A stretch of 64,000 nucleotides of DNA from Psammoneis japonica (lineage: Eukaryota), in NCBI GenBank assembly GCA_008632985.1, contig QPGO01000092.1, forward strand, positions 1-64,000. The letters are read 5' to 3'. Position numbers and translations under genes: made by a program. The notes below the pieces were generated by a model that had not been told where the DNA came from, did no database searches, and saw nothing but the letters and a program-made list of their open reading frames with translations. Below, in pieces: positions 2,525 through 30,522 of the stretch (position 1 is its first letter; the number at the start of each line of letters is the position of its first letter).

Positions 2525-5085
2525 TTGTGAAACGTCGTGATGACGCCTGTTTCTGAAATCTGCCACACAGATGACGAAGGCAGGATGATGACATGAACCC
2601 AACAGGTGGTGGTGCTGTTTGGTGCGGTGCGGTGGTGTGGTTGGTGCATGTCGCAACATGACAATCACAATTCCACCAACCAAGAACACGCAGTTGCGTG
2701 ACTGCCACAACAGCATGGAGGAGAACAGGTGGCCAACAAATGCTGCAAGCAACATTTTTTCAGCACTTCCACCATGTTGGGAAGAGCCAGCAGACAGTGT
2801 TGTCTCACAGCAGAAAAAAAAAACAAAGAGAAAAGCACCCTGCAGAAGAAGGCGCCAAGCCCCCCTCAACACCTGCTTGGTCAGATCAGAGATGAGGGCC
2901 GCAAGCAACATTTGCTCAGCACTTCCACCACATTTGGAAGAGCTGGCCATGTGAAATGACAGGGAAAAAGTGCCGCTCCTCTGCACTGCAAAAAAAAAGG
3001 GGCTGTGGGCACCACCGCCGCTGTCGGGCTGATGTGCTCTCCGGGCCAGCAGTGCACCCACCACCCGCTGGGCAACTCCCGAGAGGGCTCACATTGTGTG
3101 GTCATGCTGACTGCTTGCATGTGTGACATTTTTCTGTCACAAATGCGTGCCTGCAGGTGTTTGCTGCCAGGTTCAGCCAAAACGTGGGGCACAAACTTTT
3201 GAGCCACTGGAGCACAAGAGCGCGTGAAAGGCCAGCCCTTCATTTGAAAGCTCACACATCTGGGACAGAAGCACCAGCACAGCAGCTGTGTCTCTCAGCA
3301 CAGGTGAGGTGCTGTTGTTGTTGTTCATGATTGTTGGCAGCACAAAGCAAGTGCCTGACAAAAGTTTCTTGTTGACTTGCTTGGCTTGCGCGCAGGCCTG
3401 GTGGAGTGCTCTGCTGGCTCTGCTGATGGCTCGGCCATCAGGGTCTCAACAACTCCTCTGAAGCCCCCCCTTGTTGCCACTCTTGGAGCCACTTGGGGTG
3501 GTGCTGACATGAAATGCCTTGCAAATTTCATGACTTGCTTGACTCTCACAGGCCCGCCCCCGCCCAGCTCCTCAGCTGCTTGCCTGGAGTCTTCCTTCAT
3601 TGCCCTTGGCGGCACTCTCCATCGTGAGTCCATGCATTGACCAACACACATGCACTTCACACACCTGGGTCACTGTTGGAGAGTGCCTTGGCGGAGCTGC
3701 TTGGGGGGTGTTGTGCCGCCCACCTGGCAGCGGCTTCTCAGCAAGACACTTGCAGTGTGCCAGAGCCCTGAGAGTCGAAAGGGGGCTGCTCCAGCCATGT
3801 CAATAAAAAAAACTTAGTGCATCAAACTCCTCTGGCCACATGCTGTGCTGCACCCCCCTTGGTGGCACATTGGGGCTGAGCAGTCATGGAGCAAGGGAGG
3901 CTTGCTTTCCCGGCCCAGCAGCCAAGTCATCTGTGCAAGGCAAGGCCAGTGAACTTGCTTCTGAGCCCTGAATTGCCAAGAAGTTGTGTTTCTTGACCAC
4001 CTCCTCTTTGTCTCAGCAGGACCCACAAATGTTGCTCCTTGAGGAGGTGGGCGCTGGTGCCAGAAAAGAGAGATGATGGGACTTCGGCAATGGCTGAGCA
4101 AGTGTTGGCAGCCAGGGAGCAGATGGTGTCAAGCTGCCAGAGCACAAGCCTGTGGCTTGCACTCGATCTAACAGGGAAACACTTTGGTGACCTGGCGGCT
4201 CCTTGGCAGCACTGACACAGCAAGTGTCAGGGCCTTGTTGCCTTGTCCCATCCTTCTGCACCCCTTGCATGGGCACCGGCCTTTCTCCTCTTGACTGATG
4301 AGAGTGGCAAGGACATGTGGGTGCATGAAGGCAAGTGAGTGCTCGAAGATCTTGGTTTTTTTACTTGAGTCATGCAGATTTTTGCAGGCTTGGCACTTGA
4401 CATCACAGACACCCCATGAGCTTCTGTTTGTTGAGAGAAAGGGGTGCCTGAAAGAGGAGTGACACCAGGGGGGACCATGCAGGAGGGTCTGCACCCAACA
4501 GCGGCTCCAACAATCACAACACTTGGAGAACAACCTGGTGCCCTGACAAGAAGGCAGTGGTGGAGCAGGAGGAGGAGGAGTGTGCACTGAGCCATGGCAT
4601 GAGCATCTTGCTCAAACTTGGGCAGCAAGAACAAGCAGCAGGAGGAGCCAGAGTTGAAGGCCAGGAGTGGGCACAGGCTCCAGTGAGCTGCAATGTGCAA
4701 TGCAATGCAGAGCACAGTGTTGACACCAACAGTCCAGCAACCTTCGGGCAACTGAAATGCCAGTGGCATGGAGCACCGGGGAGGCAAAGGGGTGAGACAA
4801 GCCTTGCCTGCACAAATTCATTGCCAAAAAGGACAAAGGCAAGTGTGCTTGCATCATCAACGAGGCCTTTCTTGATCCCAGTGGCAATCATCCAGTGCCC
4901 ATGGAGGTGGATCCAAAACTGTTGGAGCAAGGATCAGCCACAATCAAGTCCAAAAAGTGCAGCAAGGACACTGGTGACAAGCAGAAAATGAAACCAAACA
5001 AGCGCAAGCACAAAGTGATGGAAGAACAAAGCAGACAAGGGGGGACAACAGCCAAAGTGTTGTTGGCCACCACTCAATCTAACCA
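2525..5085. other. TpA/CpG-depleted hypermutated domain 1 (unidentified decayed repeat or pseudogene sequence)
   Basis: Only about four TA dinucleotides by hand count in ~2.5 kb; strong CA/TG excess; overlapping Tyr-free, Cys/His-rich ORFs in all frames. Confidence 0.8.
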
Positions 5086-5153
5086 TCTAGACACCGCTTT
5101 GTTGTTCTGTTTAGTTCTCTGTTAAAAATGCACTTGTTGCGTCTTTCAAAATG

Positions 5154-5475
5154 GTGTGCAAACTAACCGCCAAGCCACCAACCAATCTACATTTCAGTGT
5201 TTAATAAAAGTTATTCAGCACTTTAGGACTCAAAATGGATGATGCACTGCACTGCACTCCTCCACCCTTCACTCTCTCACTTGGTTTCTCTATCTCCATC
5301 TCTCTGACTGCGATTTGTGTGCAAACTAACCGCCAAGCCACCAACCAATCTACATTTCAGTGTTTAATAAAAGTTATTCAGCACTTTAGGACTCAAAATG
5401 GATGATGCACTACACTCCTCCACCCTTCACTCTCTCACTTGGTTTCTCTATCTCTATCTCTCTTACTGCGATTTT
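5154..5475. repeat. Tandem duplication of ~160 bp
   Basis: gtgtgcaaactaaccgccaagcc...ctgcgattt occurs at 5154-5316 and again at 5317-~5475. Confidence 0.9.
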
Positions 5476-5524
5476 TTCCTAACACCCTGTTTCCCGGTAA
5501 CCTTCCTCCAAACACCCTTCCTTC

Positions 5525-5908
5525 CTACTCCTCCACCGCTTTGGGTTTCTTTCTTTTCCAAGATCCGTTGCGCTTTTTCTTTTGCTTCTTCTTGTTGTTC
5601 GACTTGGGCGCGGCCCAGCATGGATGAATAATCAAGCCGTCCATTACCGTTCCATCGAGGTCCTCCATGGCCGCCAAGGCGTCTTCGTGCCACTGAAAAG
5701 TCACAAAGGCAAATCCGCGATTTTGTCCATGCTCATTGAGGGGGACGACAATATCCTTTACTGCCCCCCTGCCCTGCATTGCCTGGCGCACGCTATGGTA
5801 GGTGGCTGTGGGGGGAATCGGGAGGAATAGCTTCTTGGGGAAGCAAGAAGTGGCCGTTGTGGAGGCGGTAGTGGCGGTGGAGACGGAGTTGTTGGAGGAG
5901 GCGCTCAT
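5525..5908 (-). CDS. Small single-RRM RNA-binding protein with basic C-terminal tail
   Basis: RNP1 motif RGFAFVTF followed by EDALAAMEDLDG; Lys-rich tail; ATG at 5908. Confidence 0.75.
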   Translation of the reverse strand: MSASSNNSVSTATTASTTATSCFPKKLFLPIPPTATYHSVRQAMQGRGAVKDIVVPLNEHGQNRGFAFVTFQWHEDALAAMEDLDGTVMDGLIIHPCWAAPKSNNKKKQKKKRNGSWKRKKPKAVEE

Positions 5909-6365
5909 GTTTGTGTTTTGGTTTAGGGTTTGTGTTGTTTTAGTGTTGGATTTTGTGAGACGAAAGGGAGGTGCAACAATAAAAGCGGAAATCACGTTTC
6001 ATACCCGCATACGTTTGAAGATGAGGTCGCACGTTCGTTTGGGTTCGAGGGTTGGATCGAGTCGTGCTTTCAAAACCGCGCGACACCAGCACCGGTAAGG
6101 GCGCTTCATTATCGGTTCCATTATTCGCTTCTGCTCTGCCCCCTGCCCAGGCAATTTTTCCTTGTGCTTTTTCTCATGAGCATGCACCAATGCTGTGGTG
6201 ACGTTTACCAACGCCGCACAAACGCAGGCACGATTCGGCTCAAACGCGTTTTGATCTTCACGAGTCCCATTCGGAATCAGACCGGCTAATTACGAAAAGA
6301 CTCAACGGTTCTGCTCTGCTTCCATAAATTGCACACCCTTGACATTTGCTTCAGATTGATAGTGC

Positions 6366-6900
6366 ATGACTGCTCGAAATGATGGAGTTGATGATACCAC
6401 CAGCTGGGAGCTCGACGAAGACGAATCGGATTCCCTCTCGTGGTTTGAAACCTCTTCAGAGTTACCCTTGGATATGTCGTTGACCTCAGCGGCAACTTTG
6501 ACGAGTGTCGTGATAAAGACCAACGATGTCCTCCTCGGACGGTCGAAGCAAGCCTTTGCCCAGCCGGGAAACGAAGCGTTCCGCGCTCTCATTCGTCAAC
6601 GCTCGGATTCGTACAAGTCAAGCGATTGTCACAATACCAAACAAGCGATTGCTCGAGGCGCCGTTTAACAAAGTCAAAGCTCTGGTGGTCGCTTTCTCAA
6701 AGTGCAGCAGAATGGCTCTATATTCCTCTCGTCGTCGAGTCCATGACACGAAAAAGTTTGCCACGCTCTGAGTAGTGCTGGGAGAGTGCGAAGCAAAACG
6801 AATAGCCAGCTGCAATCGCTACACGTGTGGTTTTCAGATTTCTCCTTTGCCAGACGTGCAGCAGAAATGCTAAATGTACTTGGTACCGACAAAACTTCAT
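6366..6900 (+). pseudogene. DUF6824-domain gene, frameshifted (pseudogene or assembly indels)
   Basis: DVLLGRSKQAFAQPGNEAFRALI...KQAIA, then GGRFLK and EKVCHAL interrupted by indels and stops; 3' end approximate. Confidence 0.6.
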
Positions 6901-9399
6901 ACTACCTGGTAAGGAGCTTCATTGCCATCCATGTTCAGGTTTCAGGCCTTACGTGGCGGCCACACCATTGCATCGGCTGTTATTGGTTGCTTGTTGGCTG
7001 TACCGGTATGTTCGCGGTTCGCATCGCGGGCGGCTGTCGGCCCTCCGTGCCGTACGTACCGTACATACCGACCGACTCTTGTTTTTGACTTGATTTCGGC
7101 CCTCTTTTTCTCGTTTTTACATAGATTTTTTAGTTCAAAAAATAGAATTCATTTTATATTTTCGATTCCCCGCGCTCTAAACGGACTGAAAGAAGTCCCG
7201 ATTTACCGGCAGAGATGTTCTGCTCCATCGCACCCCCAACACATCAATGCATCGCAGCGTTCTGTTTCCTTTTGCAGTACATGCATCCCGTGATGGATTC
7301 ATTGTCACATGCCCGCCATCCACTCATGGCTCAAAACCACACAGCAAATGCTTGCAGCAAGAGTGCGGCTGTGGGCGGCGCGCACAAAAGACACCCTTCC
7401 CCGGCGGCTCGAGATGTCGCTGTGCAGCAACCCATGCCTGAGCACCATCAGGGAATTGACTGTAGAGGCAGTCTTTTTGCTGGGCAGCACCCACCTCAAC
7501 ACAGCACCCACCTCAACACAGTTTTGTGGTTGCCTCATGGATGGTGCTTTGATTTGTGTGTTTGTGGCAGGGCCTGGCAGCCCCCCCTGCAAGGGGCTGC
7601 TTGGGTTGCAAACAACCCAGGCTGAGCCACAGCTGCTGAGTTGCCCCAGCCCATGGCCTGCTGCACATGAGAATTTGGTGGTCTCTCAAGTTGAGAATGT
7701 TTCGTCCTGGCACAACCAGCCCCGGTGTGCAGAAAAACAACAAAGGTGGTGCGAGCAAAAGCAGCCAAATTGAAGACTTCAACAACAGTGACAACTTGAG
7801 TGATGAGAGTCAAAGGGTCACAGCAAAACGTTTGTGAGCAGCAAACACAGTGCTTTTGATGAACTTGTGGAGCTTGGGCTCTGGTGTTGCTGTGCAGCAA
7901 GCTTGCGTGCTGCTGTGCCAAAGGTCTGCTGTTGCCTGTGCAGCTGTGCAGCTGAAAGAACAAAGCACTGAGAGCAGTTGGTCAAAGGCTGGAAAGATGC
8001 TCATTCTTGCAGCTGGTGGGCTGGAACTTCAGTTTGCATCACAAGCACTCAAGGGCTCCCCCTTTTGAAATGCAAAGTGTGTTGGTCTGGCTGGCTTGAA
8101 GATCCTTGACTCTTTGAGCAAGTTGCAGTGTGTGAGCCGCTGTGGATTTGTGCAAGCTCAGAGGATTTCTCCCAGCCACTGCTTTTTTGCTCTTCTCATC
8201 ATCTCAGCTGCAGCCACACACATCTGAGCTGTCAATCTTGTCATTGCAGCTGTTGCTGTTCTTGCCACACACTGTGAGTTGCCACAAAAGGGCGGTCATT
8301 GGCTGGCCACATGCAGCAAAATCACCTGATTTTGGCAATTTGAGAATCCAGACATGTCACCTGGATTCCTTTGGGCAGTTTTTGCTGCCACATTCTGGTG
8401 ACTTGAGATTGAGCTACAGAGCCTTGGGCTTGCACAGAGATGTCTGGCAAACAAAAATGTGTGCGCCATCATCTCCACACAGAAAACTGCACATTTCTCA
8501 CAGCACACCACATGTTTTGCAACTTGAGCTTGCACCCAAAATGCAACACACAACAAACAACAAAAAAGTGTTTCTCCCACTCCAGAGCTTGCCACCCAAT
8601 GCAAGAAGTCCATCTGGAACAACTTTCCTGCACAAAATTTGCACCAGAAAAGCCAACGAATTCTGGATTGGTGAGATTTTTTGTGTTTTTCTGGATGTTC
8701 TACACACAGTTTTTGGCAAAATTGGATGTTCCAGACTTTTTTGACCCCCCCTGGTGCTGATTCCATGCCAGTTTTCACTAGTGTGCAGTTCAACATTCCA
8801 GGCTTCTTGCATCAGGTGGCTTGCTTGTCTGTGTGTCAACGGCTGTGTGTTTGGCCAAGGTGAAAAAAATTGTGTTGCTGTTCAATGTTGGCCATGTGTT
8901 TGGACATGCCAAAACAGTGTGCTTGCCGACTTTCGTCACATTCTCACAACCATGGTTGGTGTGAGTCTTGAGCCACTTCACTCATTTCCACTGCAGACTG
9001 CACATGGGATTTTTTCATGCCAGGTGCCAAAAATGACATTTTCATTTCTGAGCAAGGCAACAGAGTCTGTGTCAACAACACACAGTGTGTGATTTTCAGC
9101 AAGGGCTGTGGTGCATCTTGGCCAACTCAAGGCTGAGATGCCAATGTGCTGCTGAGTCTGCAACATCAAGCTGATCTTTGTTGCCATGGGCCCTTGCACC
9201 ACTTTTGACGCCTTGTGCTTGTTGCTTGTTTTTTGCTTTTTCATCCAATGCTGCAGCCTGAGTTTGTTCATCTGCTCCTGCAGCTTCACAGGGCAGCATG
9301 TGCGCAGTGTGCTTTGTGATGGGACAAGTTGGGGAAAGCCAAATGATGCAATGCATGGATGGGAGCTCAAGACCACTGGCAACCAGATCTGCAGTCAGC

Positions 9400-11832
9400 T
9401 TGTCAAGCTTGTTGCAGGTCTGTGCTCAAGCAGTTCAGAGTGGCTGCCCTTCCTGGCCTTGCATCTGTGCAACATCTGTGCTGGAGCTCAGCTTGTCACC
9501 AGAAAACTTGGTTTGGTGTGTCCTTCTCTTCTCCAAAGAAGCCCAACTGTTTCTTTCTGCATTTTCACGTGCCCCTTCCAGCAGCAGACATGTGCAACAG
9601 AGAGAAAAGGAAAGAATCAGGGAGCCAGCAAGCTCAGTTTCCGATGCAGCATGACTTTTGCTGCACTTGTTCTCAAAAATGCAATGGCTTTTATGCTGCA
9701 GCAACAATGCTGTGAGACAAGATGTCAGAACCAGCCCCACACCCCACCTTCACTCCACTCACCTGGGTTGCCGCAACATGCCATGTTGCTCATGCTTTTT
9801 GTGCACACTGAGAAAAAAGTTGTTGGCAGAAAGTTGTGGGCCCTTTGTCCAAAATTTGAGCAAAACACAAAACAAAGGGCTTTGTGGCCACTGCTGGTTC
9901 TTGTGGACAGTGGTTGGAAGAACTTGAAACAAAAGCATTTGCAACAGTTGTGGCAGCAGGAGCAACATTGCCTGGCAGCATGAACAAAAAGATGTGGTGC
10001 CCACCACAGCTCCAGCTTGACTCAACAAAAACTGTCAGGTGTGCCAAATCAATGGCAGATCAGCTTGTCAGAGGCAGTGCTTTAGCTTGGTTGCATTCAC
10101 TCTTTCAGTGCTGTGAGATGGGCCTTTTTGCACTGCAGCAGAGGTGCTCTGTCTGCCAGAGTGTGTGTTGTGCTTCAACTCCTGTCTCACTCTCTCAACC
10201 TCTCTGTGTCTTCTCACACAAGAAGCTCTTCCTCCTGCTGATGGCATGTCTTCTTGTGCTGGCTCACCTGCTGAAAAGCTGGCTTCTGCAAGAGTGAGTG
10301 CACCAAGAGCAGGAGCACAAGAGTGCAGCACACCAGGAGCAGCACAGGATGCTTGGGTCCTCTCAAGAAGGTCAGATCTGCAGGGGTTTGTCAGCTTCTC
10401 TGCCAGGACTCTCAGAGTCCAGTGGCAAGTGCAGCTTGCTTTTGAAGCCACCACCTCAGCAACCACATTGGCAGCCTGCAAAAGATGGAAACTTTTGCGA
10501 GCAGCATCAGCTCCAAAGGCAGTGTGTGTGGCAAACAATGTGGCAGGCAGCAAGCTGAGAGTGTCACAACAAACAGTGCTGGCTGCAAAAAGCAGGGTGC
10601 AAAGCACTGCACATGAATGAGTTAAAGCAAGGGGGTCTGCATGCTTGCTTGAAAAAAAAGAAGAAAACAGGATGATCTTTGCAGCCAAAGACAGCACTGG
10701 CAGAGCTTTGCACACTTGCAAAACATGCACATGGAGCTTTGAAGCAAGTTGGTTGTCAAGGCACCCTGCTGCCCTTCTTGCTTTTTCTGTCTTTGACTGC
10801 TGGGCTCTTCAGCTGACTCTCTGGTCAACTGGCCATCCACAACCAGATCAACTTCCTGCACCAAAAAAGATTTTCTTCTTAAAGCCATTGGGAGGAAGGA
10901 GCAGAGTCACATGCTGCTGAGTTGTGAGTCTTGTCACCATCACAGCTGCTGTTGCCACATGCTGCTGCGAGTGCCACAAATCACATCATGCCTCAAAAAT
11001 GTGCTTGGCTGAGCTCCAAGTGCACTCCTGTTGTGCTGACTGATTTGGTCAGTTGACAACTTTTTGAAACAACTTGCAACTTTCCCTTCTCTTTCCACTT
11101 CAAAGAAGTGCTTGCACCTTTCTACATTTCCACACACACGCCCCTCCAGACATGCACAGCAGAAAGAAAAGGAAAGAACCAGGGAGTCAGCAAGCACCAA
11201 TTCTGATGCAGCATTTGTTCTCAAATGACATGGCAGCTGTTGTGCCGCAGCAGCAAGAATGCTGTGGCAAGAAGATGAGTTGCCAGCATCACCCCACCTC
11301 TGCTCCATTCACCTGGACCATCACAAGATGCCATGGTGCTCACACTCTTTCAGCTGAGAAAGATTGTTGTTGGCAGAAAATCAGAAGCTTTGTGTTCAAA
11401 ATTTGACAAAAAAATCAAAGAGATTTGTGGCCACAAAAATGGTTGGGTGGTTTCAAGCAAACAAGTTTTGGTTGCGACAAGAGGAGTGGCAGCGCTGTGA
11501 TGGCAGGAGCAGCATTTCCTGGCAGCATGAAACATGAGCTGATGGTGCTTGCAGCTCTCCACTTTGTTGGCTCAACAAGGGCTGTCAGGTGCACCAAATT
11601 GACAGCATCAGTTTGTCAGAGGAGATGCTTCAACTTGGTTGCACTTGCTTTTCTCTGATGCTGCAAGATGGGCTTTTTGCACTGTGAAGGTGTTTCGCCC
11701 ACCAGACTTTGTGCAGTGCTTCAGCTCCTGTCACACTTGCTGCATCTCTGTCTGCTCACGCAAGCTCTTCCTCTGGCTGGTGGCACATCTTGTGCCAGCT
11801 CACCTGCTGAAAAGCTGGCTTCTACAAGAGCA
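9400..11832. repeat. Two diverged direct copies of a ~0.8-0.9 kb unit (~9400-10295 and ~11040-11832)
   Basis: Colinear shared blocks, e.g. aaaaggaaagaa(t/c)cagggag(c/t)cagcaagc near 9605 and 11167, and gctcacctgctgaaaagctggcttct(g/a)caagag near 10262 and 11798. Confidence 0.75.
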
Positions 11833-12339
11833 GCAGGTGTGATGCAAGAACACGGGGAGCCCTCAACTGAGCTTTCTCTGCCCCAGAAGAGCAGGTCAAA
11901 TGCCAAAGGCCTCACAAGCAAGCACAGGCAGGTGGTGCAGCATCTGTGCACCTGTGACCAAGCTGTGTGACACCAGCTGCAAAAAACAACAGGAGGAAAG
12001 AAAAATGCTGTGCCCCTGCTGTTTGGGCAGCTGGCAAGACCGATGCCCCAAAGTTGTGTTTCAGGGGGGAAGCTGCTGAGGGCTGTTGGCACACCAAATG
12101 AATTGAACCAGTGGCTCAATTTTTGTGTGGGTGGGGGGAACACATCACTGAGTGAGATTCCACACTGGCACATTTTCCACACAAACACAAATTCACTGTT
12201 GATTTTTTTTTACACAACAAAAATTATGAAGAAAACAGTTTGCAGACAATTGCAGCATCACATCATCACCTTGTTTTGATGATTGCACAACTGTGACAGA
12301 ATTTATGACACAATGCATGTGAACATTTTTGAACAACAA

Positions 12340-13520
12340 CGTTGAATGATGTCAAAGTTGGTGATTTTCAGCACTGGAAATTTGGTGTTGCACCAAAAAT
12401 TGAGCCACTGCTGGCACTGCCAGGTGTGACTCTGGTGGACAATGATGTGAGACTGGCCCTTTCATCCACCACCACAAACAAATTTGCAGAACCACCCATC
12501 AAACATCCAATGGAGTCTCCATCAAGCAGAACTTTGAAGCAGGCACTCGCGCACGCACTTGTCACACCACCTCATTGACTGTGCAGCTGCTCCAAATTCA
12601 CCACAGCCATCCACAAGGACATGACATGCAAGGTGAAAATGGTGGTGGCCAAGAGGAAAGCAAAAAAAGCATGAGAACACTCTCAAAACTGTCCTCTGCA
12701 CTCCACCCTGCATTGAAGCCTGTGCAGTGAGGCACAGCACCAAAACTGGTGCTTTGTTGTCAGGGCATCCATCTGCACTGAATGTCACCCTTTTCCTGCA
12801 CCGCTGTGTCAATGAGCTCCCCTCACCTGCCAGCATGGGCTTGTGATGGATGCAGCTGCAACAAGTTCTTCATTCAGCAAGCCCTTCAGTGCAAGAAGGG
12901 TGGGCTGGTCATGTCTGGACATGATGAGATCCACCGTGATGAGCTCAGCTGCCCAAAAGCTCATTGGCATTCAAGCCCTCCATGGTGCATGATAAACCTC
13001 TCATGAACCCTGCTGGTTGTGCCTCTGGAAGCCTGGCCACCAACAGTGCAGTCGCCAATGTCAACAAGTCAAGAGATGGTGATCGTGGAGATCTTTCAGC
13101 CAGAGGAGGCTGCCTTGTGGGAAACAGATGTCAACATGGATGTTTGTTGCCAGTGCTGATGCACCACCCCATTTGTCCAAGACCCCAGAACAAGTGCTGC
13201 TGGATCCCTGATGGAGAAAAAGCACAAGCATGTCAAGCCATGCCTTGAGCAATGCCACCATTTTTTGCCTGCAGCGGTGTCATGCTGCAACGGGCTGACT
13301 GGTCAGGAAGCTCAAACTGGCTTGTGACAGACAACTGGAAAGATTTCAAACAAGTGGCAGAGGCCATGTTTGGTTCATCAGTGCAAGGTTCAGCATTGTT
13401 GCAGCTGTGAGGGCAGCTCACTTCTGCCTCAGAGTCAGCTCCAAATGCCCCCCCACTGGGAGGATGGAGCCAGTTCATCTGTGCACTGCTGCCTCCAAAC
13501 CATGACATGCCACCCAAGGA
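12340..13520 (+). mobile_element. Decayed 3' portion of an RLE-encoding non-LTR retrotransposon (CRE-like)
   Basis: Colinear degenerate motifs across frames: CDGCSCNKFFIQQALQCKKGGLVMSGHDEIHRDEL (zinc finger), AFKPSMVHDKPLMNP, GDRGDL, EKKHKHVKPCLEQCHHFLP, KWQRP, ARFSIVAAVRAAHFCLR. Confidence 0.7.
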
Positions 13521-13724: not shown

Positions 13725-13728
<4 letters not shown>

Positions 13729-19960: not shown

Positions 19961-22900
19961 TTGGTGTGTTGAGCCAAGAAGTGGCAAGATTGCAGTTTGG
20001 GGATTGTTTCATGCATTGTTTGGGGAAGAGATTGTTTTGGGTGACAAGTGCAGTGATTTCATTGTTGTGCAGATGCCCGGGAAGCAATGAACAACCTGGC
20101 ACTCAGACTGCTGTTGTGGTTGTTGAGGCACTGCCACGAAACCACAGCAGCAGCAGCAGCAGCAGTTGCACCAGCAGGAGCAGCAGCGCGCCGTTCACAG
20201 CAACAGCATTGGAGCAGCAGCAGTCGAAAACAGGAGCATCCATGTGCCGATCTCAACAATTGTGTCCACTGTCACCACTGCTGCTCCCACTTCTAATGCC
20301 GCTGCTGCTTCTGCTGCCGCAAATGCTGTTGCGACTTCTGTTCTTGCCGCTGCCATCTGCAGACGTTCAGCCAATTCATGCCACAAGTCATCATCCATGT
20401 CAAGAACCTGGTTCACTTCACAGTCATGAAGATCTTCTGAAAATTGCTCTGTCTCCAATTCTTCATCACAGTCCAAGAGAGCCACCTGGTCATGTGCTTG
20501 ATTGTCTTCTTTGTGCTCTGCAAGGCAGAGAACTGGTCGCAGTGGTTCACCTGGATGGGTGGTGGAGTGGTGCTCCTGCCATGACCCAAGACACTCTTCA
20601 CCTGCATTGGCCCTCATGTGAATTCTCTCTTCAACTGTTTTTCTGCTCCAACGTGCTTCTCTGAAGACAGATTGAACATCAAGGGACAGCCACACTCTTG
20701 AACATTCCAGCATTGCCAGAGAATCTTGGACTTGTCACCATTGCATTTGGAGAGACAAAAGTGTTTTAATTCTGTCACAGGAAGAAACTCATTGTCACTG
20801 CATGAACAGTGCCAACATTTCAAATTTTCCTTGCAGTGACCAAGGCAAATGTCCTCACTTGACTTCCATGCATTGATGAAGCAAGGCATTGCATTGAGGT
20901 TGTTTCCCACAAAAGTTGCATCCATGGCCCGCTCAAGAAGATCCAATCACTCAGTGAAGACATTCATCAACATTGCAACCACGCCCATGTGGCCCCCATC
21001 AACTTCATGTGGTGCACCTGCTTTTTCTTTGCCGAGAGAAACTGTTCTGTCATCAATCGTGTGAGCTCATTGTCTCCCATGCCCAAGCATTCCAGAGAGG
21101 ATTTGTTGATCGTGAAATGATTTTTCTTGCTGCACATCTTCAATCTTGCTTTCTGAGTTGTTCTTGTCCTCAACAGCATTCTGCACATGGGATCGTGTTT
21201 GAGGTGGAACTTCAAAGCAAGGTTCATTGAAAGCCTGGCCAGTGCTCTGGCAAAGTTGCAATGGCCACACACTTTCTTGATGAAGATCATTTTGGCGCAC
21301 TTCATCAAGAGCAAAATCTTGAAAAGTCACCTCGGTGATGCTGCACTTCCTTTTGGTGGCTGCAAAATTTCTGGATTCTTCTTCCATGCAAATGTCAAAC
21401 AACTTTGCACACAACGAAATCATTGGATTGCCTGTCATTGCAAAAGTGCTACAAAGGTCTTTCTTTTGGGTGATGGAGTGTTGCTTTGCATTCTCCTTTT
21501 CTTTTTTCTCCTTTGGACGGGTTCCAGTCCCAGACGGAACTCTGTGTGACATTTTGCCCGCAGAATTCTGCGTGCGAGCTCCACTGTAAATTTGTCAAGC
21601 AATGAAAATGTGAATGATCGCCAACAGAAAAAGAGGCAATTTTACGAAAGCATTGGTGTCTCCTCCTTCACACTTGGAGTTGATCCCAAAATGAGACCAG
21701 GCACAAATTAAGACCCGCGTGGGGCGTGGTGCAAAAATGCACAGAATTTTCTGTTGGTGAAAAAAATCAAGAGGCATCGCGTTCAAAACAGCATGATGAG
21801 AGCGTTCGATTGCCACCCTTTTTGCCCCCCAGAAAAATGCTTGGCCCTTGCGGGGCGCATTTGATCTCCAGCACTGAAATCACACATGTTTCTGTGTGGG
21901 TCTTAAATCACCACACCTGCCCATCCACATTGGCTTGTCAGACATTTTGGTTGTTGTGCTGAAACTCATGAACCAACCAGATTTGAAAAAGAGGGGAGGA
22001 TTTTTTTGTGACAAGTTCAATGAGATCTTTCACATCCATGCATGAAAAGTTGCATTCCATGCATGCAGAGAAATGTCAGTGGCTGTTGATCTCAGGTGGG
22101 TCTTGATGTGGGATTGACTCTGCTGGAGTGTGTCATCAACAGTTTGCCCCCGGGTGCATCCTGCAGCTCATTGAAGAACACACCCAGCGCATTTTCATTC
22201 TCACAAATGTTGAAAATGGAAAGCATTTGGCTTCGCAAAACAGGGAGCATGAAACAATTTTGTAGAATGTCACATGCAGAAATGCATGTGCATGACATGC
22301 GACACGATCCAAAAAACTGTTGATGTCACAGTTCAGCAGCACCCGCACAAGGTCCCACCCAGAGCTGGAGTGCATCTTGGTGATTGTCCCAACCTGTTTC
22401 CACAGGATCACTTGCATCAGGGTGTTTGTCCACCGGCAGTTTTGCAAGAAGAGATTCAAACAATTTTTGCCAATCCCAAGCAACCATCATGTTGCAACCC
22501 ATGTCTTCAATGACCTCACATTGAGCAAGTGTCAAATCTGGATGATGTTGTGGTCTGCGGTTTTCAAGCAACGACCTCTTGCCTTTTTTCGCCACCAGCC
22601 TTTGTGAATTTCACAACACAGCACTCCAACAAATCACTGGGACATTGCACATGAGTTTGTTCCAATTGACACATTCGTGCATTCAACAATTTGAACTTTG
22701 CACTGTCTCAGGCGCTCCATGTTCTTCTTCCACCTTTCTTCCCTTTCCAAATTTTCAAAGTCGTTCCCGTCCCAGAGGAGCCCAATGTTGTTGAGACACT
22801 TGACATGCCATGACAACAACCATCAACTGTTGACAGCCTTGGCCCTTCTAATTTTTTTAATGCTTTTGCACATGAAACAAAACAGGTTGCTCTTTTTGAC

Positions 22901-24986
22901 AGCGGATGAGCCGTTTGTTTCCTTTTTGACCACACACAACAACCACAGCAGTTGGGTTTTGCCCGTTTGGGGATTCCCCAAAATGGCAAGGGCAAGGGGG
23001 GAATTGCCTCACCCTTTTGGGGAATGCCCAGGAAATGAGGGTAATTTGGTGGGAAGGAACAACTGAAAGGGGCCAGGGGAAGGAACAAAAAATGAGTGCA
23101 GTGCGACAATTCCTGTCTCATTTTATGTGGGCGGGTGTGCTTTTGAAACATTCAACCAGAAAGCGAAAGCAAAGCCACGCTCTGCCGCCGCCGACCATGA
23201 TGGATGCATTGACAAATCAGCACAAAGCATCCCCTCATGGCAGAGCAAGGGAAGAATGAACATTGTCATTTTAAATCACACATGTTGATGTTGCTGACAC
23301 GCGGCTCCATTTTTGCCTCAGCCTTTGCTCTAGAGCCATTGTGGTTTGCATTTGTGACCACACAACACAAAAAGGAAAAAATGATGCAATGTGTTCTGTG
23401 CGTGAGACAGGTCAAAGGGAAGAACAAACACCATCAATCAATTTGCCATGCTTTCATTGACCATGTGCAGTTCCCATTTTGCCTCATCCTTCACACTGGA
23501 TGCCTTGTGGCTTGCCTTGCTGAATGCATGACAAAAGAGCGATCTAAATGATCCCCTTCATTCTGCACATGAGATGTGTAAATTGGAAGAATGAGGGTGA
23601 CTGTTCAATCCACCATGTTGTTGTTGTTGGCTGTGTGTGGCTTTGCTTTTGCCTTGCCTTTGCTGCGCACCTTGTGGCTTGCATTTGTGGCTGCATGACA
23701 AAAGAAAAACCAACGACTGACGACTCAATCGCACCAGTGTTCTGCACATGTGCAACCACATTTCATCTTGTGTTTTGTGCTGCAGATCCCGCTCAATCAA
23801 TGTCATCGATCACATTGAACGGTGTGTGGTGATTGACAGACAACAGCCAACATAAATGGGGTGCGAACGTGCCATGGCGTGTTGCCCATTTTTGTTGCGG
23901 TCAGTCGATTGTCTGGCTCCAATGTCCCGGCCCGTAGAAGGCACAGAAATGCACGAGAAGGGAAGCACGGGGAATTGCCAATGCACAATTTTTTGTTCAT
24001 GCATGGAGCATGTGTGTGACGAAGTGCAATTTGCTGCAATTCCCTGGGAAATCATGCTTCCCGTGGAAAATCACGGCAAAAGGTGGCAATCCCGGGGAAT
24101 TTTGGGGAATCCTGCAGCAAACCAAACTGAGGGCAACAACTCGATGCAACAGTTGAAGGAGCCAATCCTGTCCACATCCAGCTCAAAAAATTCATTGTCT
24201 TTCCAGCACTCTTTGGGACTCATGCCACAACAGTTGACTTCTTTGTCCTCTTTTTCTGTTTCGCACTCTGACATGTCTTCCAAAGCTTCTGCCACAAACA
24301 AAGTCCCTTGTTTCTTGAACTTTTCTGGGGTGATCCCACGAATCTTCAAACTGTCACAAACAAGCAGCTCTTCTGCTTCAAGCACAAGAAGAGGCTGGCT
24401 TTTCCACTGGGGTGGTGTCAAAGAAGGAGAACTCATGAGATGACATCATGCGCGGTTGTGCTCACAGAACAACCAACAAGCAACATCAATTGCAGCATGA
24501 CTTTTTCAAAAGACAAAAACGATTGTTGACAATGAATGCACTCAGTGCATCTGCTTTGCCTGCTGCAGCAACAGCAGCTCTCCTCTCCTCTCTGTTCTCT
24601 GGTGGCTGCTCTAGAGAGTGCAGCAGAGTGGAGAGTGCCGCACTGCAGCCACCAGAGCAGAGCAGAGAGTGCCAAGAGAATGAAACAAGACAATGGAGCG
24701 AATTCATTGTGACCCTGGTAGATTCTTAGACTTTTCGCTTTTTGTCTCATCAACAACAATTTCTCGTCCAGTGCAGTGCTGCTGGGAACAATGTAAGACA
24801 TGACATTTGGTGCTTTTAAAATTCACTAAAGTGGACATTGTGCAGTTGATGCAGTCATGATTAGAATGACTTGCTGTGGGGCATTTTTCAATGACTTGTT
24901 TGCAGTCATTGCGAACAAACCGAACAACATTGTGTACATTGATGAGTGACGAAATGCTCAAGAAAAGCAAAGAGCGTGGAGAAACA
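19960..24986. other. Hypermutated domain 3, middle part: unidentified decayed coding remnants, mostly minus strand
   Basis: TA-depleted; protein-like but Tyr-free fragments at 20614-21552, 22092-22595 and 24071-24436; no family recognised. Confidence 0.5.
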
Positions 24987-24991
24987 ACTTG

Positions 24992-25175
24992 TGCAAGATC
25001 CAGCTTGAGATGACTTGACAAAAGTTGTGGGAGAACCAAGAAGAGACCCAATCAGCGCAATTGCTGATCGGAACTGACTTCCAATGGCTTCCTGAATGTC
25101 CAATGTGTCAGTTGACACACGTGTGTCAGAGAGGGCACACTCGGTCATAAAGCGCACATGTGCCTGTCTCATTCA
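24992..25175 (-). repeat. 3' LTR (hypermutated copy)
   Basis: Aligns end to end with 30523-30704; adjacent to the PPT. Confidence 0.92.
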
Positions 25176-25286
25176 CTCTTCCCCTCCATGGTGCAAGGAA
25201 CACGCACACCATTGGAACCACTTGACTAAAATTCAAACCCAATGTGCACGCACGGAGAAGGGAACCCAGATGTTGGGAAGAAACCC

Positions 25287-28200
25287 TCAACTCCGATGCG
25301 GCACCACGCGGCGAATGTCAATTCGCTCAATGACGTGCGGTGCTCGCAGCACCGAAACAGTCCCGTTGGCGTGGACTTGTGCAATTCGAAACGGACCACA
25401 GGCTCGTTCTTCCAACTTTGAAGGATCCACCGACTTGATTGATGCATCTTGACCAACTGGATGATCGCAGGAATGGCGCTTCGCATTCTGTCGTCGCAGG
25501 TTCTCGTCGATCAACACTTGTCGGTTGGCTTGTGTCGCAGCAAGGTCGGAGACAACAGGCAAGTCCAAAATCACATCGCATTGAAACACTGGAGCTCCAC
25601 TTGAAACACCCACAGACCTTGAGTGGGAGCATCGCAAAGCACAAGAGGCTGCAGCAAGGGCATCGTCCACAATCTGCTTGGCCTGTTGAACATTTAAAGG
25701 TGGGTCAGCGACAACCACAGTGCGCAAGATGTTAGCTGCTGTCTGGTGCATTCATTCACAAACAGAGTTGGCTGCAGGATTTTGAGACGTCGTCGGCGCA
25801 TCAGCAACACCCGCTTGATTTAGCAGCATTTGGAACTCCCAACCAATGAATTCTCCACCATTGTCATGGATGCATCGATTCGGTCTGGGACAACAAGCCA
25901 ACCAAAGATTGTGAAACTTGTTGGTCACATGCTGAGAAGTTTTGTCATCAGCGCGCACGAGTTCAGTCAATCCAGTGACAGCATCAATGCAAGTGAGAGC
26001 GCTGAATTCAATCTCTTGGTCTTGAATCGGCATTTTCCACGGTCCAATGAGATCAACCGCTGCTTCCATCCACAGAGCTAAAGGTGCTTGACGTTGAGGC
26101 AATTCTCCACATCCAGGGCCCAGTTGTTTAAATCGTTGACACGCATTGCAAACAAATTCGTTACAACGTCGACGCAATGCAGGATGACACACATGAGTCC
26201 GAATGCTTTCATGCAATCGCACAACTCCACAATGGCCCAACACGTGATGGTGCCATGCAATGGCATCCGGCAACAACGCAGCAGGAATGCAAATTTTCCA
26301 GGCTCCAGATGGATCATTCAGATGCAAACAATGACAAATCAGGGGGTGATGATTCACAATCTTGACCACAAATTGCTGCGGATTTTGTTGTCTTTGCTGG
26401 TTCAGTTGGAGGTCTTTGAACTGGAGCTGTTGTGTCCTTGGCATCACAGTGGGGTTCGGCATTTCGTCCAGCGTCGGGTGATTCAAAAAGCATTCAAACA
26501 ATTCAGGCTCATCAAGCAGAGAGGAAAAGGCGGCGCGAGACTCATCAGAAGGATCAATGGGAGCACGGCAACACTTGAACCTGCAAGCGCCCAACTCCAA
26601 ATCTTCCTCTTCCTTGGCCCTGCTTAGTTCTTTGGAATCCAACTTTCAAAATGAACAATTTTTCCTTTGCGTTTGCTGCTTGGCCCAAGGCTCTTCCCCT
26701 CCAAAGGCGGTCCATGCATGGGAGACGAGAAAAACAATCGGCGAGCACGTCATCCTTGCCTTTGACATGTTTAAAGGCAGGCGCGAAATCTTTGAGGAAC
26801 AGTCGCCAACGAAGGACGCGTTGTGCATTCAAAGCATGAAAGGTGAGATTTTTGTGATCAGTGTGAACAGCAAAATCAGCACCAAGCAACATTGAGCGAA
26901 ATTCCTTGAAGCACATGATGACGGCCAGGAGTTCTTTTTCCATTGTTGAGCAATTGTGTTGAGCCGCCGAGAGCTTCTTAGACCAATGCGCCACAGGTTT
27001 GCCATCTTGAATGACAGCGGCGCCCATCTGGCAGTCTGATGCATCGGTGTAGACATGGAATGGTGGGTTGTGGTTGGGGTGGGCCATCAACGCCATCACT
27101 GCCTTCTTCTCCTTGAACGCTTTCTGACATGATTCTGTCCATTGGAAATGACTCTTGCCTGTCAATTCAGTCAGAGGTGCAAGCAGGTGAGAACGGCAAG
27201 GCCACATGTTACGATGGCAGGTTGCTGCACCGAGAAACGACCGGAGCTGAGCAGTGTCCCGTGGAGGTTGCATTCGTGGGATCGCCTCGACCTTCTTTTT
27301 CCACAGTTTGGTGCCAGTTGGAGCAAGCCAATGCCCTGGAAAATCGGTTTCTTGGACACACCACTCGCATTTCAACGGGTTGACTTTCAAACCATTCTCC
27401 TCAAGACGATGTGGCACCTTGTCAAGACGAGAGAGATGGCAATCAAAGTCAGTGTCAAATGCGCCAATGTCATCAATGTAAGTTTCAACATCCAAACCAT
27501 GCAGGATCTTTTCAATGATGGACTGAGCAATGTCTGGAGCTGGCTTCAATCCCACAGCCACACGACAACACTGGAATTTCCCGCACGGAGTTGCAATTGT
27601 AGCGAGCTCCTTGCTTTCATCGTCCAACTCCAAATTGCAGCAGAACACAGTGAGATCCAGTTTCGTGAAGAACTTGTAGCCCGCTCTCCGCTGCAGCACA
27701 TCTTGAACAACCGGTGAAGGACACACTTTTCGCTTGAGGACCTTGTTGAGCTCCCGAAAATTGGATGCCCATCGCACTCGGCCATCCTTCTTCGGAGTGA
27801 CAAAGGTGCCAGCTGCCCATTCCGCAGGTCCACATGGTCGCAGTGCGCCAAGATTCACCAAATGCTTCAACTCCTTTTTGAATGCTTCTTCATTGACTCC
27901 AGCAACAGGAAATGGTTTTGAGTGACAAGGAATGGCATTTTCATCCACTTCAAGGTGCACCTTTTCATGAGGACAGTGCCCCAAAGTTCCATCAAACAAA
28001 GTTGAATGTTTTTCCAACACCGTCAACAGCTTCTTCTTTTGCTCTTCTGTGAGATGGTCTAAGTTCCGAACCACTTCCGCTGGATCCGTTGCTTCATGCT
28101 TGGCGTCGAGCACACAGTTGTCACATCCATCATCGCATCCATGGTCCGACTCGTCTTCATGATCTTCATCAAATTCATCCATTCGATCTAAAGCCACATG

Positions 28201-28755
28201 CCAATTGCAGGATTTGGACCAATGACGTGGTTCCTTCATTGGGATCACACGGTCCAGCCATCGCAGTGTCCTCGTGTCGCAGTTCAGGTTGAGGCCAATC
28301 TTGTCCAAGAAATCTTGACCCAAAATGATGTCACACGCACACGGAGCATCGAATGCGTGAGCCACACAGCCGTCAATCCTCCCAGTTTTGTTGAATTCCG
28401 GCAACACGACATCACTCAAGGCCACCCAACGACCCAATTGGAAAGGACCTGCAACGGTTTGAAAAGCTCGGACTCCATGTTCGTCAACAGATGGCGCGGC
28501 TCCTCGAGGCAAAACTTGGGACGAAATCACTGTGTGAGAACCACCCGAATCGAACAAAACACGCATCACACGATTCGACTCATGCCGTTGGATTGATTTT
28601 GCAACAAGTGGTGCAGATGGGACCAATGTGGTGCACGAGACTTGCGAGCCCATTTTGGGGAGAGGAGTGTCATGTTCAAATGCATCTTGATCAAACACAT
28701 CCCCCTCTTCATTCACGCAATTTTCTGTGGTGTTTTCAAATTCAACAGGCAACAA
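25287..28755 (-). pseudogene. Gypsy pol remnant: protease, reverse transcriptase, RNase H, integrase
   Basis: RVLFDSGGSH (PR), PKKDGRVR and YIDD (RT), TDASD and EKELLA (RH), HHHVLGH..C..C, VDLIGP, HDNGGEF, NSVCE and GPF (IN); frameshift near 26600 and in-frame stop at 25752. Confidence 0.9.
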
Positions 28756-28899
28756 TTCATCAGGATTTTCAAAACAATCAAAAGCAAAACATTCATCATT
28801 TCATTCAGGCAAAACACAATCATTTTCTTCAACAAATGCTTCTCTCACAGGCAATTGGGAGCACTCAGCTCCGGAGCATTCAGCTCCTTCTTCTCAGAA

Positions 28900-30200
28900 C
28901 TGCCAAGGAAACTGCCCGTCCAGCTGAAACCTCACCACACCTCCGCATCATGGAGGGCCTCGTCCGATCACATCGAAATGGTGCACATCACCACCAGGAG
29001 CTTCTCAAGCCTGGTTGTCATTGTTCACATTGTCTGCTTGAGCAGCACATCCGTCGGCCTGTCCTTGGCCTCCACGGTTGTTGTTTTCATTGCAACAATG
29101 TTGACCACCACCTTGGTTGCCATTGTTGTTTTGATTTCCGTTGTTTTCATTGTGACAATGTTGACCACCACCTTGGTTGCCATTGTCACTTTGATTTCTG
29201 TTGTTGTTGTTGCAATGGGTGCCACGACCTCCTTGGTTCTGGCTGCCACGACCACCAAAGCATCCACCGCCTCCACGGCCTTGACCACGGCCTCCTTGGA
29301 AACGACCTCCGCCTCGACCTCCACCGCCACGGCCTCCTCCTCGACCGCCACGGTTCTGAGGCCCACGACAGTTGGGGTTGTTTGGATTGTCATGACACTG
29401 GCCCCACACATGTCTTCCATGGTGCCACAGGACCGGACACGGATCACCTGCCTTCGGTTGGCCCTTGCCATCCTTCTTGTCACGGTTGCCCTTTTTGTCA
29501 CTGGAGTTCCCTCTGTTGCCATTGCTGGACTTGCGTTTCTTGTTGTCTTGACCATCGGCAAACACCTTCTCGTTGCTCATGCAGGCTTGGATGTCCACCA
29601 TAGAATCTGCAACGAGGTTCTTGCCCGCACGAATGCAGGGCTGCTGCCAGGTCAAAGGAAAGGTGCAAAAGATGACATTTTTCTGCTCCTGCTCTGTAAG
29701 TGCAGGAACGGTTCCAGGCAAACGGTCAGCATGACGAAACAACATTTCCATGCAATCAATGTGAGTTCAGATTCTGCTGAGTGAGGCTTTTTGCAAGCAG
29801 GCAAATGCATCTTCATTGTGTCGCGAGCTGTCGGTTTCACGCAGTGCAAACAACAGGCTGAGACAGCCTGATCAAATCGAGCTGCCGTCCGTTGATTCTG
29901 TTGGATGCCCGCGGCAACATTCTGCCATTTTGCTTCCGCAGTTCCTTGGAGACAATCCTCAAAAGCATCAAACAACTCTGTTCCGGCATCATAATCCAGC
30001 TGTCTTGCCACCTTCCGGAGCCTGTCCTCCACGTGCAACAATGATTCAATTCCATGCTCTCCTGTGAAAATGGGACACAGTTTTGAAAGTTCAGCACCAT
30101 CATCAAAGGTTTGAGTGAGCTTCACTTCCTGCAGTTCAGAATCCACGAATTTGGTTTTACATTCAATGCACACTTTCTCCAAGGCTTCTTGACACATGGC
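28900..30200 (-). pseudogene. Gypsy gag remnant with zinc-knuckle-like motif, RGG tract and 60-bp x2 repeat (29081-29200)
   Basis: ORFs 29652-30287 and 29005-29751 linked by a frameshift; CPVLWHHGRHVWGQC followed by RGGRGG; lies between the 5' LTR and pol; ends approximate. Confidence 0.75.
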
Positions 30201-30522
30201 GATGAACAATTTCAGCGATCGAACAATCAACAATCCACAAGACAAACGAAATGAAACGTTCCCAATTGATCCACACAACGAGAACAATCAACAACCAAAC
30301 AACAACGAATTCAAGAGCAGCAACACGAGATTCACGTTCAAACAAACGCTGCTCCGAATCACCAATTTCACGAGCACAATCACGCTGCGATTCTGATCGA
30401 CTTCGAATGAAATTTTCTGCACGAGCTCGCAAATAAATTTTCTCTCTTCTCGATGACACTCTTCGCGTTGTCATAAATTTGATAATGTAATGAACAAGCT
30501 ATAACAACGACTGTAATTACAG

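Follow-up and report, generated by a model that had tools for sequence, protein, structure and literature searches.

A 64,000-nucleotide window of the genome of the diatom Psammoneis japonica (assembly GCA_008632985.1, contig QPGO01000092.1, positions 1-64,000 of the forward strand) contains three blocks of DNA from which the dinucleotide TA has almost disappeared. The pattern is probably the outcome of a real, in-place mutational process on chromosomal DNA, which turns TpA into TpG or CpA within sharply bounded, transposon-rich domains of this diatom. Two features of the third block carry the argument. One is a Ty3/gypsy long terminal repeat (LTR) retrotransposon that straddles the right edge of the block, so that one LTR has lost every TA found in the other. 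The second is a tandem duplication at the left edge, where a mutated copy lies next to its unmutated twin. The process is quite probably of the same kind as the TpA-only hypermutation described in the alga Bigelowiella natans (Mettrop et al., bioRxiv 10.64898/2026.01.13.699255).

Loss of TA from three bounded blocks

Composition was computed in 500-bp bins, and block edges were placed from the positions of individual TA dinucleotides. Block 1 (2523-5079) has 4 TA in 2556 bp, or 1.6/kb. Block 2 (7205-13881), the most decayed, has 15 TA in 6676 bp (2.2/kb). Block 3 (17234-30433) is a nest made up of a gene-fragment copy, high-copy repeats, and a gypsy element; it has 54 TA (32 + 22) in 13198 bp, with densities of 4.1/kb in the part labelled 3a and 4.0/kb in the gypsy element. 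The reference interval 32000-60000 contains 1067 TA in 28000 bp, or 38.1/kb, and at the TA density outside the blocks the Poisson log10 P values are -36, -87, and -144 for blocks 1, 2, and 3, respectively. Bins within 2501-5000, 7501-14000, and 17501-30500 contain 0-4 TA each (one contains 8), with TpA observed/expected ratios of 0-0.21; bins elsewhere in the window mostly contain 10-30 TA, with ratios of 0.3-1.3. The edges of block 1 are sharp: the final TA on its left lies at 2522, the following one at 3804, and TA is back at 5080. At block 2, TA is sparse beyond 7204 and returns at 13882/14048; at block 3, it is sparse beyond 17233 and returns at 30434. The original prediction, made from the letters of this stretch, had described three almost TA-free blocks, and both the blocks (1.6-4.1 against 38.1 TA/kb) and their edges, to within about 160 bases, were recovered.

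What has taken the place of the missing TA? Inside the blocks, the observed/expected ratio of CpA+TpG is 1.3-2.0 and reaches at least 1.5 in most 500-bp bins; it is lower (1.30-1.48) in a few, within 18001-18500, 21501-22000, 26501-27000, and 30001-30500. CpG, on which the original prediction touched only briefly, is also depleted, with observed/expected ratios of 0.03-0.6 in blocks 1, 2, and 3a (0.1-0.4 in block 1 and 0.03-0.16 over most of block 2) and of 0.6-0.9 in the gypsy element (25000-30000). Since the loss of TpA and the loss of CpG both end as CpA or TpG, the G+C content stays flat, at about 0.48 inside and outside the blocks alike. The fraction of pyrimidine-purine (YpR) steps (TA+CG+CA+TG) amounts to 0.233-0.243 within the blocks, to 0.240 outside them, and to 0.244 +/- 0.007 in 78 related gypsy elements. 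Because this sum is constant, what sets the blocks apart from normal DNA is only how the YpR steps are shared out among their four kinds, which is the outcome that transitions at TA and CG would have. In the blocks, CA+TG outnumber TA by a ratio (CA+TG)/TA of 48-140, versus 4 outside, which suggests that TA is destroyed about two orders of magnitude faster than it is re-created and that the process is recent or continuing.

The window allows mutated and unmutated copies of the same sequence to be compared directly, with the copy outside the block taken as the reference. The first pair derives from the tandem duplication. Unit 1 (15042-17230, 2.2 kb, + strand) has normal TA and contains a 489-aa open reading frame (ORF; 15365-16834) that matches no Pfam family. 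The head of unit 2 (17230-18680, +) forms the left 1.45 kb of block 3 and is a mutated copy of 15042-16532; the two are 86% identical in bases and 96-98% identical after collapse to purines and pyrimidines. Among 42 TA in the unmutated copy, 16 have become CA and 16 TG, 5 are kept, and 5 are otherwise changed or gapped. The corresponding figures for 84 CG are 29 CA, 21 TG, and 28 kept. The tail of unit 2 (31488-31828, +), a copy of 16889-17230, lies outside the domain and is unmutated. This third pair, aligned over 16893-17230 and 31492-31828 with both members outside the blocks, is 94% identical and has kept 15 of 17 TA.

The second inside/outside pair consists of the LTRs of the gypsy element. 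This complete retrotransposon (24992-30704, - strand), recognised by its pol domains, LTR pair, and target-site duplication, makes up the right 5.7 kb of block 3 and is TA-free except for the final 270 bp or so at its 5' end. The LTRs are 182-184 bp long, start with TG, and end with CA, and a purine-rich tract lies beside the 3' LTR. The 3' LTR (24992-25175, -) lies inside the TA-free domain, and the 5' LTR (30523-30704, -) lies outside it with its TA intact; the target-site duplication ACTTG is found at 24987-24991 and 30705-30709. Between them, the pol region (25290-28746, -) encodes reverse transcriptase and RNase H in a 748-aa ORF (26554-28800) and integrase in another frame (25752-26645). 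All 14 TA of the 5' LTR are converted in the 3' LTR (8 to CA, 6 to TG) and none is kept; 5 of 8 CG sites differ, and only 2 other sites do.

When a retrotransposon integrates, its two LTRs are identical, since both are copies of a single template. Since the LTRs of this element differ at 14/14 TA while sharing the same ACTTG duplication, the mutations arose in the chromosome after insertion. To judge from this asymmetry, the conversion of TA took place in DNA, in place, and post-integration. The claim that TA in an outside copy corresponds to CA or TG in the inside copy holds for both of the pairs present.

Is TA the ancestral state, or is it CA/TG? A protein outgroup was provided by the 60 best homologues of the gypsy pol ORF (P0091-P0150, 44-63% identity). 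Alignment with these gave 298 conserved columns, defined as those with one residue in at least 80% of the homologues. The element has kept the residue at only 3 of 20 conserved Tyr columns, the others having become Cys (9, TAY to TGY), His (5, TAY to CAY), or another residue (3), versus 240 of 278 conserved non-Tyr columns (Fisher P 3e-11). Tyr makes up 0.4% of the pol ORF in the window versus a mean of 3.5% in the homologues. The other conserved columns that have changed mostly show the exchanges (I>V, M>V, V>A, L>P, L>S, R>C, D>N) to which TA or CG transitions across codons would lead. A DNA outgroup was provided by the 78 related elements, which come from metagenome contigs; their TpA observed/expected ratios range from 0.42 to 1.08, and none of the 78 falls below 0.4. 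With the conserved tyrosines replaced and the relatives normal in TA, the outgroups identify TA as the ancestral state and CA/TG as derived. The reverse order, with CA/TG ancestral, had been named in advance as a threat to the proposal, and neither the Tyr columns nor the DNA relatives agree with it.

The specificity of the process is seen in the substitution spectrum pooled over both inside/outside pairs. A>G changes are found at 46/108 TpA sites, 12/246 ApA, 13/229 CpA, and 4/239 GpA; the 46 changes at TpA correspond to 46 of 54 TA dinucleotides. Compared with the other NpA contexts together (29/714), the odds ratio at TpA is 17.5 (P 6e-26). Lack of such an enrichment had been named in advance as a refuting outcome. 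The two strands are affected alike, with 24 changes of TA to CA and 22 of TA to TG. C>T changes are concentrated at CpG (55/182), with 3-8 of 183-232 at each of CpA, CpC, and CpT. A secondary effect at ApA was looked for, and the 12/246 changes do not differ significantly from the 5/268 counted the opposite way. At the 1161 sites where neither copy has TA or CG, 37 transitions and 16 transversions are seen. A comparison of haplotypes outside the domain (14487-15604) served as a control and gave 18 transitions and 16 transversions, of which 6 touch TA, in both directions. The postulate of a separate, strand-symmetric, TpA-specific A:T to G:C process in sharply bounded domains is therefore upheld both by the enrichment over other NpA contexts and by the CA:TG ratio of 24:22.

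The loss of TpA outpaces that of CpG. Between the LTRs, 14/14 TA sites differ versus 5/8 CG, and the observed/expected ratio in the gypsy element is about 0.06-0.1 for TpA versus 0.6-0.9 for CpG. The LTR pair (14/14 against 2 other sites) and the (CA+TG)/TA ratio give a rough TpA rate ratio of at least about 100 over background, a value that is read from a footprint and is not a measured rate. The 73 TA that survive in the blocks are enriched in TTA/TAA, with a 5' T in 0.44 of flanks versus 0.20 outside, and are poor in ATA/TAT (0.10 versus 0.25 outside). Conversion in the pairs follows the order TAC>TAG>TAT>TAA and is lowest at TAA (0.29, versus 0.57 at TAC), which fits the surviving excess, the numbers being small. 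Together, this suggests that the TpA process has a flanking-base preference. The sense strand of the gypsy element has 625 TG versus 467 CA; the mean skew of the relatives is -0.087, symmetric conversion predicts -0.057, and the maximum among the relatives is +0.16. Such an excess of sense TG would suit adenine deamination on the non-template strand, a hint that lies within the spread of the relatives.

Domains, block contents, and haplotypes

What marks a sequence for mutation? The name originally given to the process was 'reverse-RIP', after the repeat-induced point mutation (RIP) of fungi, and it implied that repeats are the target. Induction by repeats is not borne out: the twins of the mutated sequences, 15042-16532 and the LTR at 30523-30704, keep their TA. 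Only one copy of each duplicate is mutated, and thus homology or repetition is not what is sensed. Nor is repetition required, as there is a single mutated copy per duplicate and the contig depth over 17438-21241 is that of one haplotype. On the comparison of these twins, the trigger is the domain and not sequence repetition.

The block edges do not follow the ends of elements. The right edge of block 3 falls inside the gypsy element, where the 5' LTR and 88 bp of adjoining internal sequence (30434-30522, 8 TA) keep normal TA. About 300 bp beyond the 5' LTR there is a partly depleted patch (31001-31440), with 7 TA in 500 bp and an observed/expected ratio of 0.18. The picture resembles an island of protection at the LTR promoter, set in a domain that used to extend further. 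On its left, block 3 begins within a few bases of the point where the two units of the tandem duplication meet (17230). A gradient of mutation from this edge was looked for and none was found, 8 of 9 TA being converted in the first 300 bp. On one reading, the mutation of unit 2 came first and unit 1 was added later.

The islands of normal composition between blocks carry ORFs: an RRM-domain ORF (5525-5998, -, by domain match) in the island between blocks 1 and 2 (5080-7204, delimited by TA positions), and the 489-aa ORF of unit 1 (15365-16834) in the island between blocks 2 and 3 (13882-17230). The first island also contains a tandem pair of a unit of about 160 bp (5154-5474), 95-99% identical and with normal TA, which adjoins the right edge of block 1.

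The contents of the blocks were examined by a Pfam search of 121 ORFs, 59 of them in blocks 1 and 2. The only matches were gypsy domains, two remnants with a helicase-associated (HA) domain, and matches at chance level. No protein family was recognised by Pfam among the 59 ORFs of blocks 1 and 2, and no terminal repeats were found to bound either block. When 40 gypsy homologues were used as tblastn queries against the window, the pol already described was the sole match. Block 2 contains both copies of a repeat of about 800 bp (9521-10323 and 11088-11858, +), which are 68% identical in bases and 85% identical after purine/pyrimidine collapse. The commonest adjacent double mismatch between them is CA opposite TG (13 of 57; the next commonest occurs 4 times), an excess that is expected if each copy resolved ancestral TA or CG independently.

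The mobile content recognised in the blocks consists of the gypsy element and the high-copy repeats of block 3, which lie beside the gene-fragment copy and the two HA-domain (PF03457) gene remnants (18968-19324, E 2e-14, and 19593-19883, E 1e-5; both +). The mutated fragment 17230-18680 has no recognised transposable element (TE) protein domain. Contig depth in the repeats of block 3 ranges from 1000 to over 20000. For the gypsy element it is about 2000-2800, the equivalent of about 60 copies that are 90% or more alike; of the differences displayed across the gypsy family, the six with the best support are all of CpG type. A very abundant short repeat family occupies 21242-22509, where the summed contig depth is more than 20000 versus about 38 for single-copy sequence. 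Two 35-nt stretches there (21515-21549 and 22343-22377) are inverted matches in purine/pyrimidine space, and many contig joints begin at 21643.

Three sequencing runs, all from one sample and one study, were compared with the window; one of them, X3, placed no contig on it. The DNA run X1 probably comes from the assembly's own sample; the type of library is unrecorded. Contigs built from X1, at a depth of about 38, show 0 differences over four TA-free stretches (18065-21617, 3553 nt; 13000-13720; 22317-22984; and 24083-25020), so that the TA-free sequence is reproduced exactly, in what is probably the same sample; reads with TA at these sites had been named beforehand as a refuting outcome. 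X1 depth is about 38-46 over 17438-21241 versus 62-75 over 14268-16803, where alternative letters are present at half depth. In the run X2, a contig joins 16937 to 31563 and skips 14625 bases. The join and the half depth together indicate a second haplotype, about 3-5% diverged, that has one unit and lacks the nest. Block 3 is therefore hemizygous, present on one haplotype only. At 15809-16109 and 30759-31551, the X2 depth of the window haplotype is 10-12 and that of the other haplotype 46-78, and the nest is uncovered. If X2 is RNA, which is a guess, the allele beside the TA-free domain would be less expressed.

Ordinary nuclear genes lie in the right half of the window, among them those for acetyl-CoA carboxylase (ACCase), a MutS homologue, a proteasome subunit, a DOT1-like protein, PI4K, and proteins with TAZ and KH domains. 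The multi-exon gene for homomeric ACCase (47843-54836, +) and the MutS-family gene (56406-59676, -, domains I and III) both lie in this half, where composition is normal, and have no apparent link to the loss of TA. The carboxyltransferase part of the ACCase is 78% identical to that of Cylindrotheca closterium, 77% to Nitzschia inconspicua, 76% to Seminavis robusta, 72-73% to Thalassiosira / Cyclotella, and 57% to Nannochloropsis, which marks the host as a diatom.

Candidate mechanisms and rival explanations

How might TA be erased from a bounded domain? The proposed process would turn A:T into G:C on either strand of TpA, a step that is its own complement, inside bounded domains that are marked as domains and not by duplication. 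At TpA, it would run at some 100 times the background rate and at around double the pace of CpG decay within these domains. The latter, a change of CpG to TpG/CpA for which deamination of 5-methylcytosine is the simplest account, would be a second process, parallel to the first and distinct from it; one process that has both specificities, for TpA and for CpG, is possible. Deamination of adenine would give inosine, which would be read as G, and the self-complementary TpA would offer both strands the same target. A DNA-acting adenine deaminase that needs a 5' T is the simplest fit and is put forward tentatively as the agent, and as a candidate only. The tRNA target of TadA and ADAT2/3, A34, always follows the invariant U33, and RNA adenosine deaminases favour a 5' U. 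An enzyme of the ADAT2/TadA type would fit, because its A34 follows U33.

The change could instead begin on the thymine. In this unlikely route, a JBP/TET-like dioxygenase would oxidise T at TpA to 5-hydroxymethyluracil or 5-formyluracil, which would mispair with G and lead from T to C. The TpA and TpC sites of dinoflagellate DNA are enriched in 5-hydroxymethyluracil, and 5-formyluracil forms a pair with G. Oxidation of thymine fits the strand symmetry and the TpA specificity as well as adenine deamination does. The sense TG excess in the gypsy element, if real, would favour a change of A on the non-template strand, although it is a hint only. Neither the present analysis nor the available text of the B. 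natans preprint gives evidence for such a base or enzyme.

Could the loss of TA be a by-product of CpG decay? T:G mismatches left by deamination of 5-methylcytosine might recruit non-canonical mismatch repair, with errors of the Pol eta type at nearby WA. Pol eta favours A to G at WA, and the losses of TpA and CpG do share the same domains. Several observations make this account improbable, however. ApA, which is also a WA site, is not clearly changed (12/246, versus 4/239 at GpA and 46/108 at TpA). TpA goes faster than CpG, in the LTRs as in the element as a whole (14/14 versus 5/8; gypsy TpA about 0.06-0.1, CpG 0.6-0.9). Two gypsy relatives, L071 and L075, have CpG observed/expected ratios of 0.11 and 0.27 yet normal TpA (0.76 and 0.81), so that CpG decay occurs without TpA loss in other hosts. 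In addition, C>T is absent from the B. natans regions, as far as the available preprint text goes.

Editing of retrotransposon transcripts by an ADAR- or ADAT-like enzyme (A to I after U), fixed by reverse transcription, has two points in its favour: the largest element identified is a retrotransposon, and RNA adenosine deaminases are known to prefer a 5' U when they change A to G, as the Discussion of the preprint cites. It is nevertheless very improbable. Two LTRs made from one RNA differ at 14/14 TA and share one target-site duplication, an asymmetry by which editing of the element's RNA is ruled out. Mutation is equally heavy in a fragment that lacks any recognised TE protein domain, the changes are strand-symmetric, and the edge of the domain lies inside the element.

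An artefact of sequencing, base-calling, or polishing of modified DNA is given just as little weight. Base modifications can cause motif-specific miscalls in long reads, and all of the runs come from one sample. Against this, k-mer contigs at a depth of about 38 agree without a single difference with a TA-free stretch of 3553 nt and with three more. A 748-aa reading frame has survived the changes, which are clean transitions, and independent public proteins show the same replacement of Tyr by Cys or His. The process is also seen in Illumina data from mutation-accumulation lines of B. natans. Finally, a native composition, in which foreign or selected sequence never had TA, would account for the bare dearth of TA and nothing more, and is scarcely credible given that conserved Tyr codons are replaced, that the sister LTR and the sister gene copy keep their TA, and that 0/78 relatives fall below 0.4.

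A number of points weigh against the preferred reading, a TpA-directed process acting in place within transposon-rich domains. The inside/outside pairs are only two. The description 'transposon-rich' is demonstrated for block 3 only, blocks 1 and 2 having no recognisable TE protein. The footprint is found in 0/78 metagenome relatives, and thus TA loss is not general to this element family. Spreading of chromatin would need an extra event to explain why block 3 starts on the left exactly where the duplicated units meet (17230). That the TA-free domains are silent chromatin is something we infer from TE content, CpG decay, and the gene islands, and a function in genome defence is a candidate reading only. 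The loss of CpG accompanies that of TpA here, unlike in B. natans. The agreement with X1 is supportive but, in view of its probable origin, not independent.

Breadth and comparison with known systems

Is the footprint confined to this locus? Loss of Tyr was surveyed in 270 public gypsy pol proteins (120 listed homologues and 150 cluster representatives). Four of them, P0136, P0337, P0374, and P0375, have lost Tyr, which makes up 0-0.8% of their residues. Conserved Tyr is kept at 3 of 17 columns in P0136 (Cys 8, His 4), 0 of 18 in P0337 (Cys 6, His 9), 1 of 11 in P0374 (Cys 3, His 5), and 0 of 11 in P0375 (Cys 4, His 3); three control proteins with normal Tyr content keep 12-16 of 15-17. P0136 and the copy in the window differ in outcome at most Tyr columns, so the events were independent. 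These four candidates appear to be gene calls on TA-erased elements, whose source may or may not be Psammoneis japonica. DNA that is free of TA lacks TAA and TAG stops as well as Tyr codons, and thus gives rise to spurious long ORFs and to strange 'proteins'; public collections already contain four or more of these. Decay that is heavy in transitions also hides repeats from ordinary similarity searches.

Targeted hypermutation against mobile DNA is established for cytosine, by RIP in fungi and APOBEC in vertebrates. Its adenine/thymine counterpart so far rests on a single preprint on one rhizarian alga, and the diatom footprint, at saturation, extends the process to a second, ecologically dominant lineage. 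The spatial tie to CpG decay makes a chromatin-guided mechanism testable. A bolder proposal, which is rather doubtful but worth stating, is that diatoms and chlorarachniophytes share a dedicated defence enzyme system: a strict 5'-T DNA adenine editor that is sent to silenced domains rather than repeats and outpaces methyl-CpG decay. With equal reserve, the shared editor may be pictured as removing Tyr codons and TAA/TAG from mobile DNA, with promoter-proximal sequence such as the 5' LTR escaping. If a shared editor existed, it would represent an ancient defence across the SAR (Stramenopiles, Alveolates, and Rhizaria) supergroup and nature's equivalent of the adenine base editors made in the laboratory. 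A DNA adenine deaminase, should that be the agent, would interest biotechnology as a natural enzyme.

How does the diatom process compare with other known systems? Like RIP in ascomycete fungi, it makes dense, dinucleotide-specific transitions that ruin mobile DNA in bounded stretches. However, RIP turns CpA into TpA, enriching TpA and raising A+T, whereas here TpA is erased and G+C is unchanged; RIP also mutates both copies of a duplication, and here only one is mutated. RIP is rejected on both counts, the opposite direction and the single mutated copy. In fungi it depends on a cytosine methyltransferase homologue of the RID/DIM-2 type. Decay of methyl-CpG is alike in that CpG is turned into TpG/CpA, with CpG observed/expected ratios down to 0.03 in the same blocks, but this covers the CpG part only. 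It cannot remove TpA and is slower than the TpA process here, and CpG decay alone is rejected because it leaves the loss of TpA unaccounted for. ADAR hyperediting of dsRNA, ADAT2/3 and TadA acting on tRNA A34, and engineered adenine base editors all change A to G with a taste for a 5' U or T. The natural members of this group are known to act on RNA, whereas the LTR asymmetry places the change in integrated DNA here.

The closest parallel is found in B. natans. In mutation-accumulation lines of this species, 231 of 302 nuclear single-nucleotide mutations fell in integrated giant-virus and virophage regions; 230 of the 231 were A>G or T>C, all of those on TpA, at rates about 1000 times background (bioRxiv 10.64898/2026.01.13.699255). 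The genome has 124 clusters of TpA-poor, CpA+TpG-rich windows that are enriched for TE and viral domains, with TE domains (reverse transcriptase, DDE) enriched among the TpA-poor genes, and the authors propose an ADAT2-like DNA adenine deaminase, the B. natans candidate being Bn78255 (bioRxiv 10.64898/2026.01.13.699255). Diatoms, CpG, and heterochromatin are not mentioned in the available text of that preprint (bioRxiv 10.64898/2026.01.13.699255).

The likenesses are substantial. Both species show a change of TpA to TpG/CpA on either strand, in discrete regions, at a rate far above background, leaving a long-term footprint that is poor in TpA and rich in CpA+TpG; in both, single-copy DNA can be mutated. 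The blocks in the diatom window have the composition by which clusters were defined in B. natans, with 500-bp bins in place of the 1-kb windows of the preprint. There are also differences. B. natans is a chlorarachniophyte (rhizarian) with viral inserts, whereas the identified target in the diatom (a stramenopile) is an LTR retrotransposon nest with a gene-fragment copy. The TpA observed/expected ratio of the nucleocytoplasmic large DNA virus (NCLDV) region of B. natans is 0.45, whereas the diatom blocks are near saturation, at about 0.03-0.1. C>T is absent from the hypermutable regions of B. natans, and CpG decay accompanies the process here. The rate in B. natans was measured de novo, whereas the diatom locus is known from its footprint alone.

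The question of novelty thus has two answers. Full-text literature searches found no report of TpA hypermutation in a diatom, in keeping with the original prediction, which knew of no such description. The same TpA to TpG/CpA hypermutation has, on the other hand, already been measured experimentally in B. natans, in the 2026 preprint, so that the process itself is not new. Taken at the level of sequence, the diatom locus represents the same kind of process in a second lineage, and the diatom case is new as far as the literature searches reach. To what is known from B. natans, the diatom locus adds action on an LTR retrotransposon after its integration, guidance by domain and not by repeats, as seen in the twin copies, and co-location with CpG decay.

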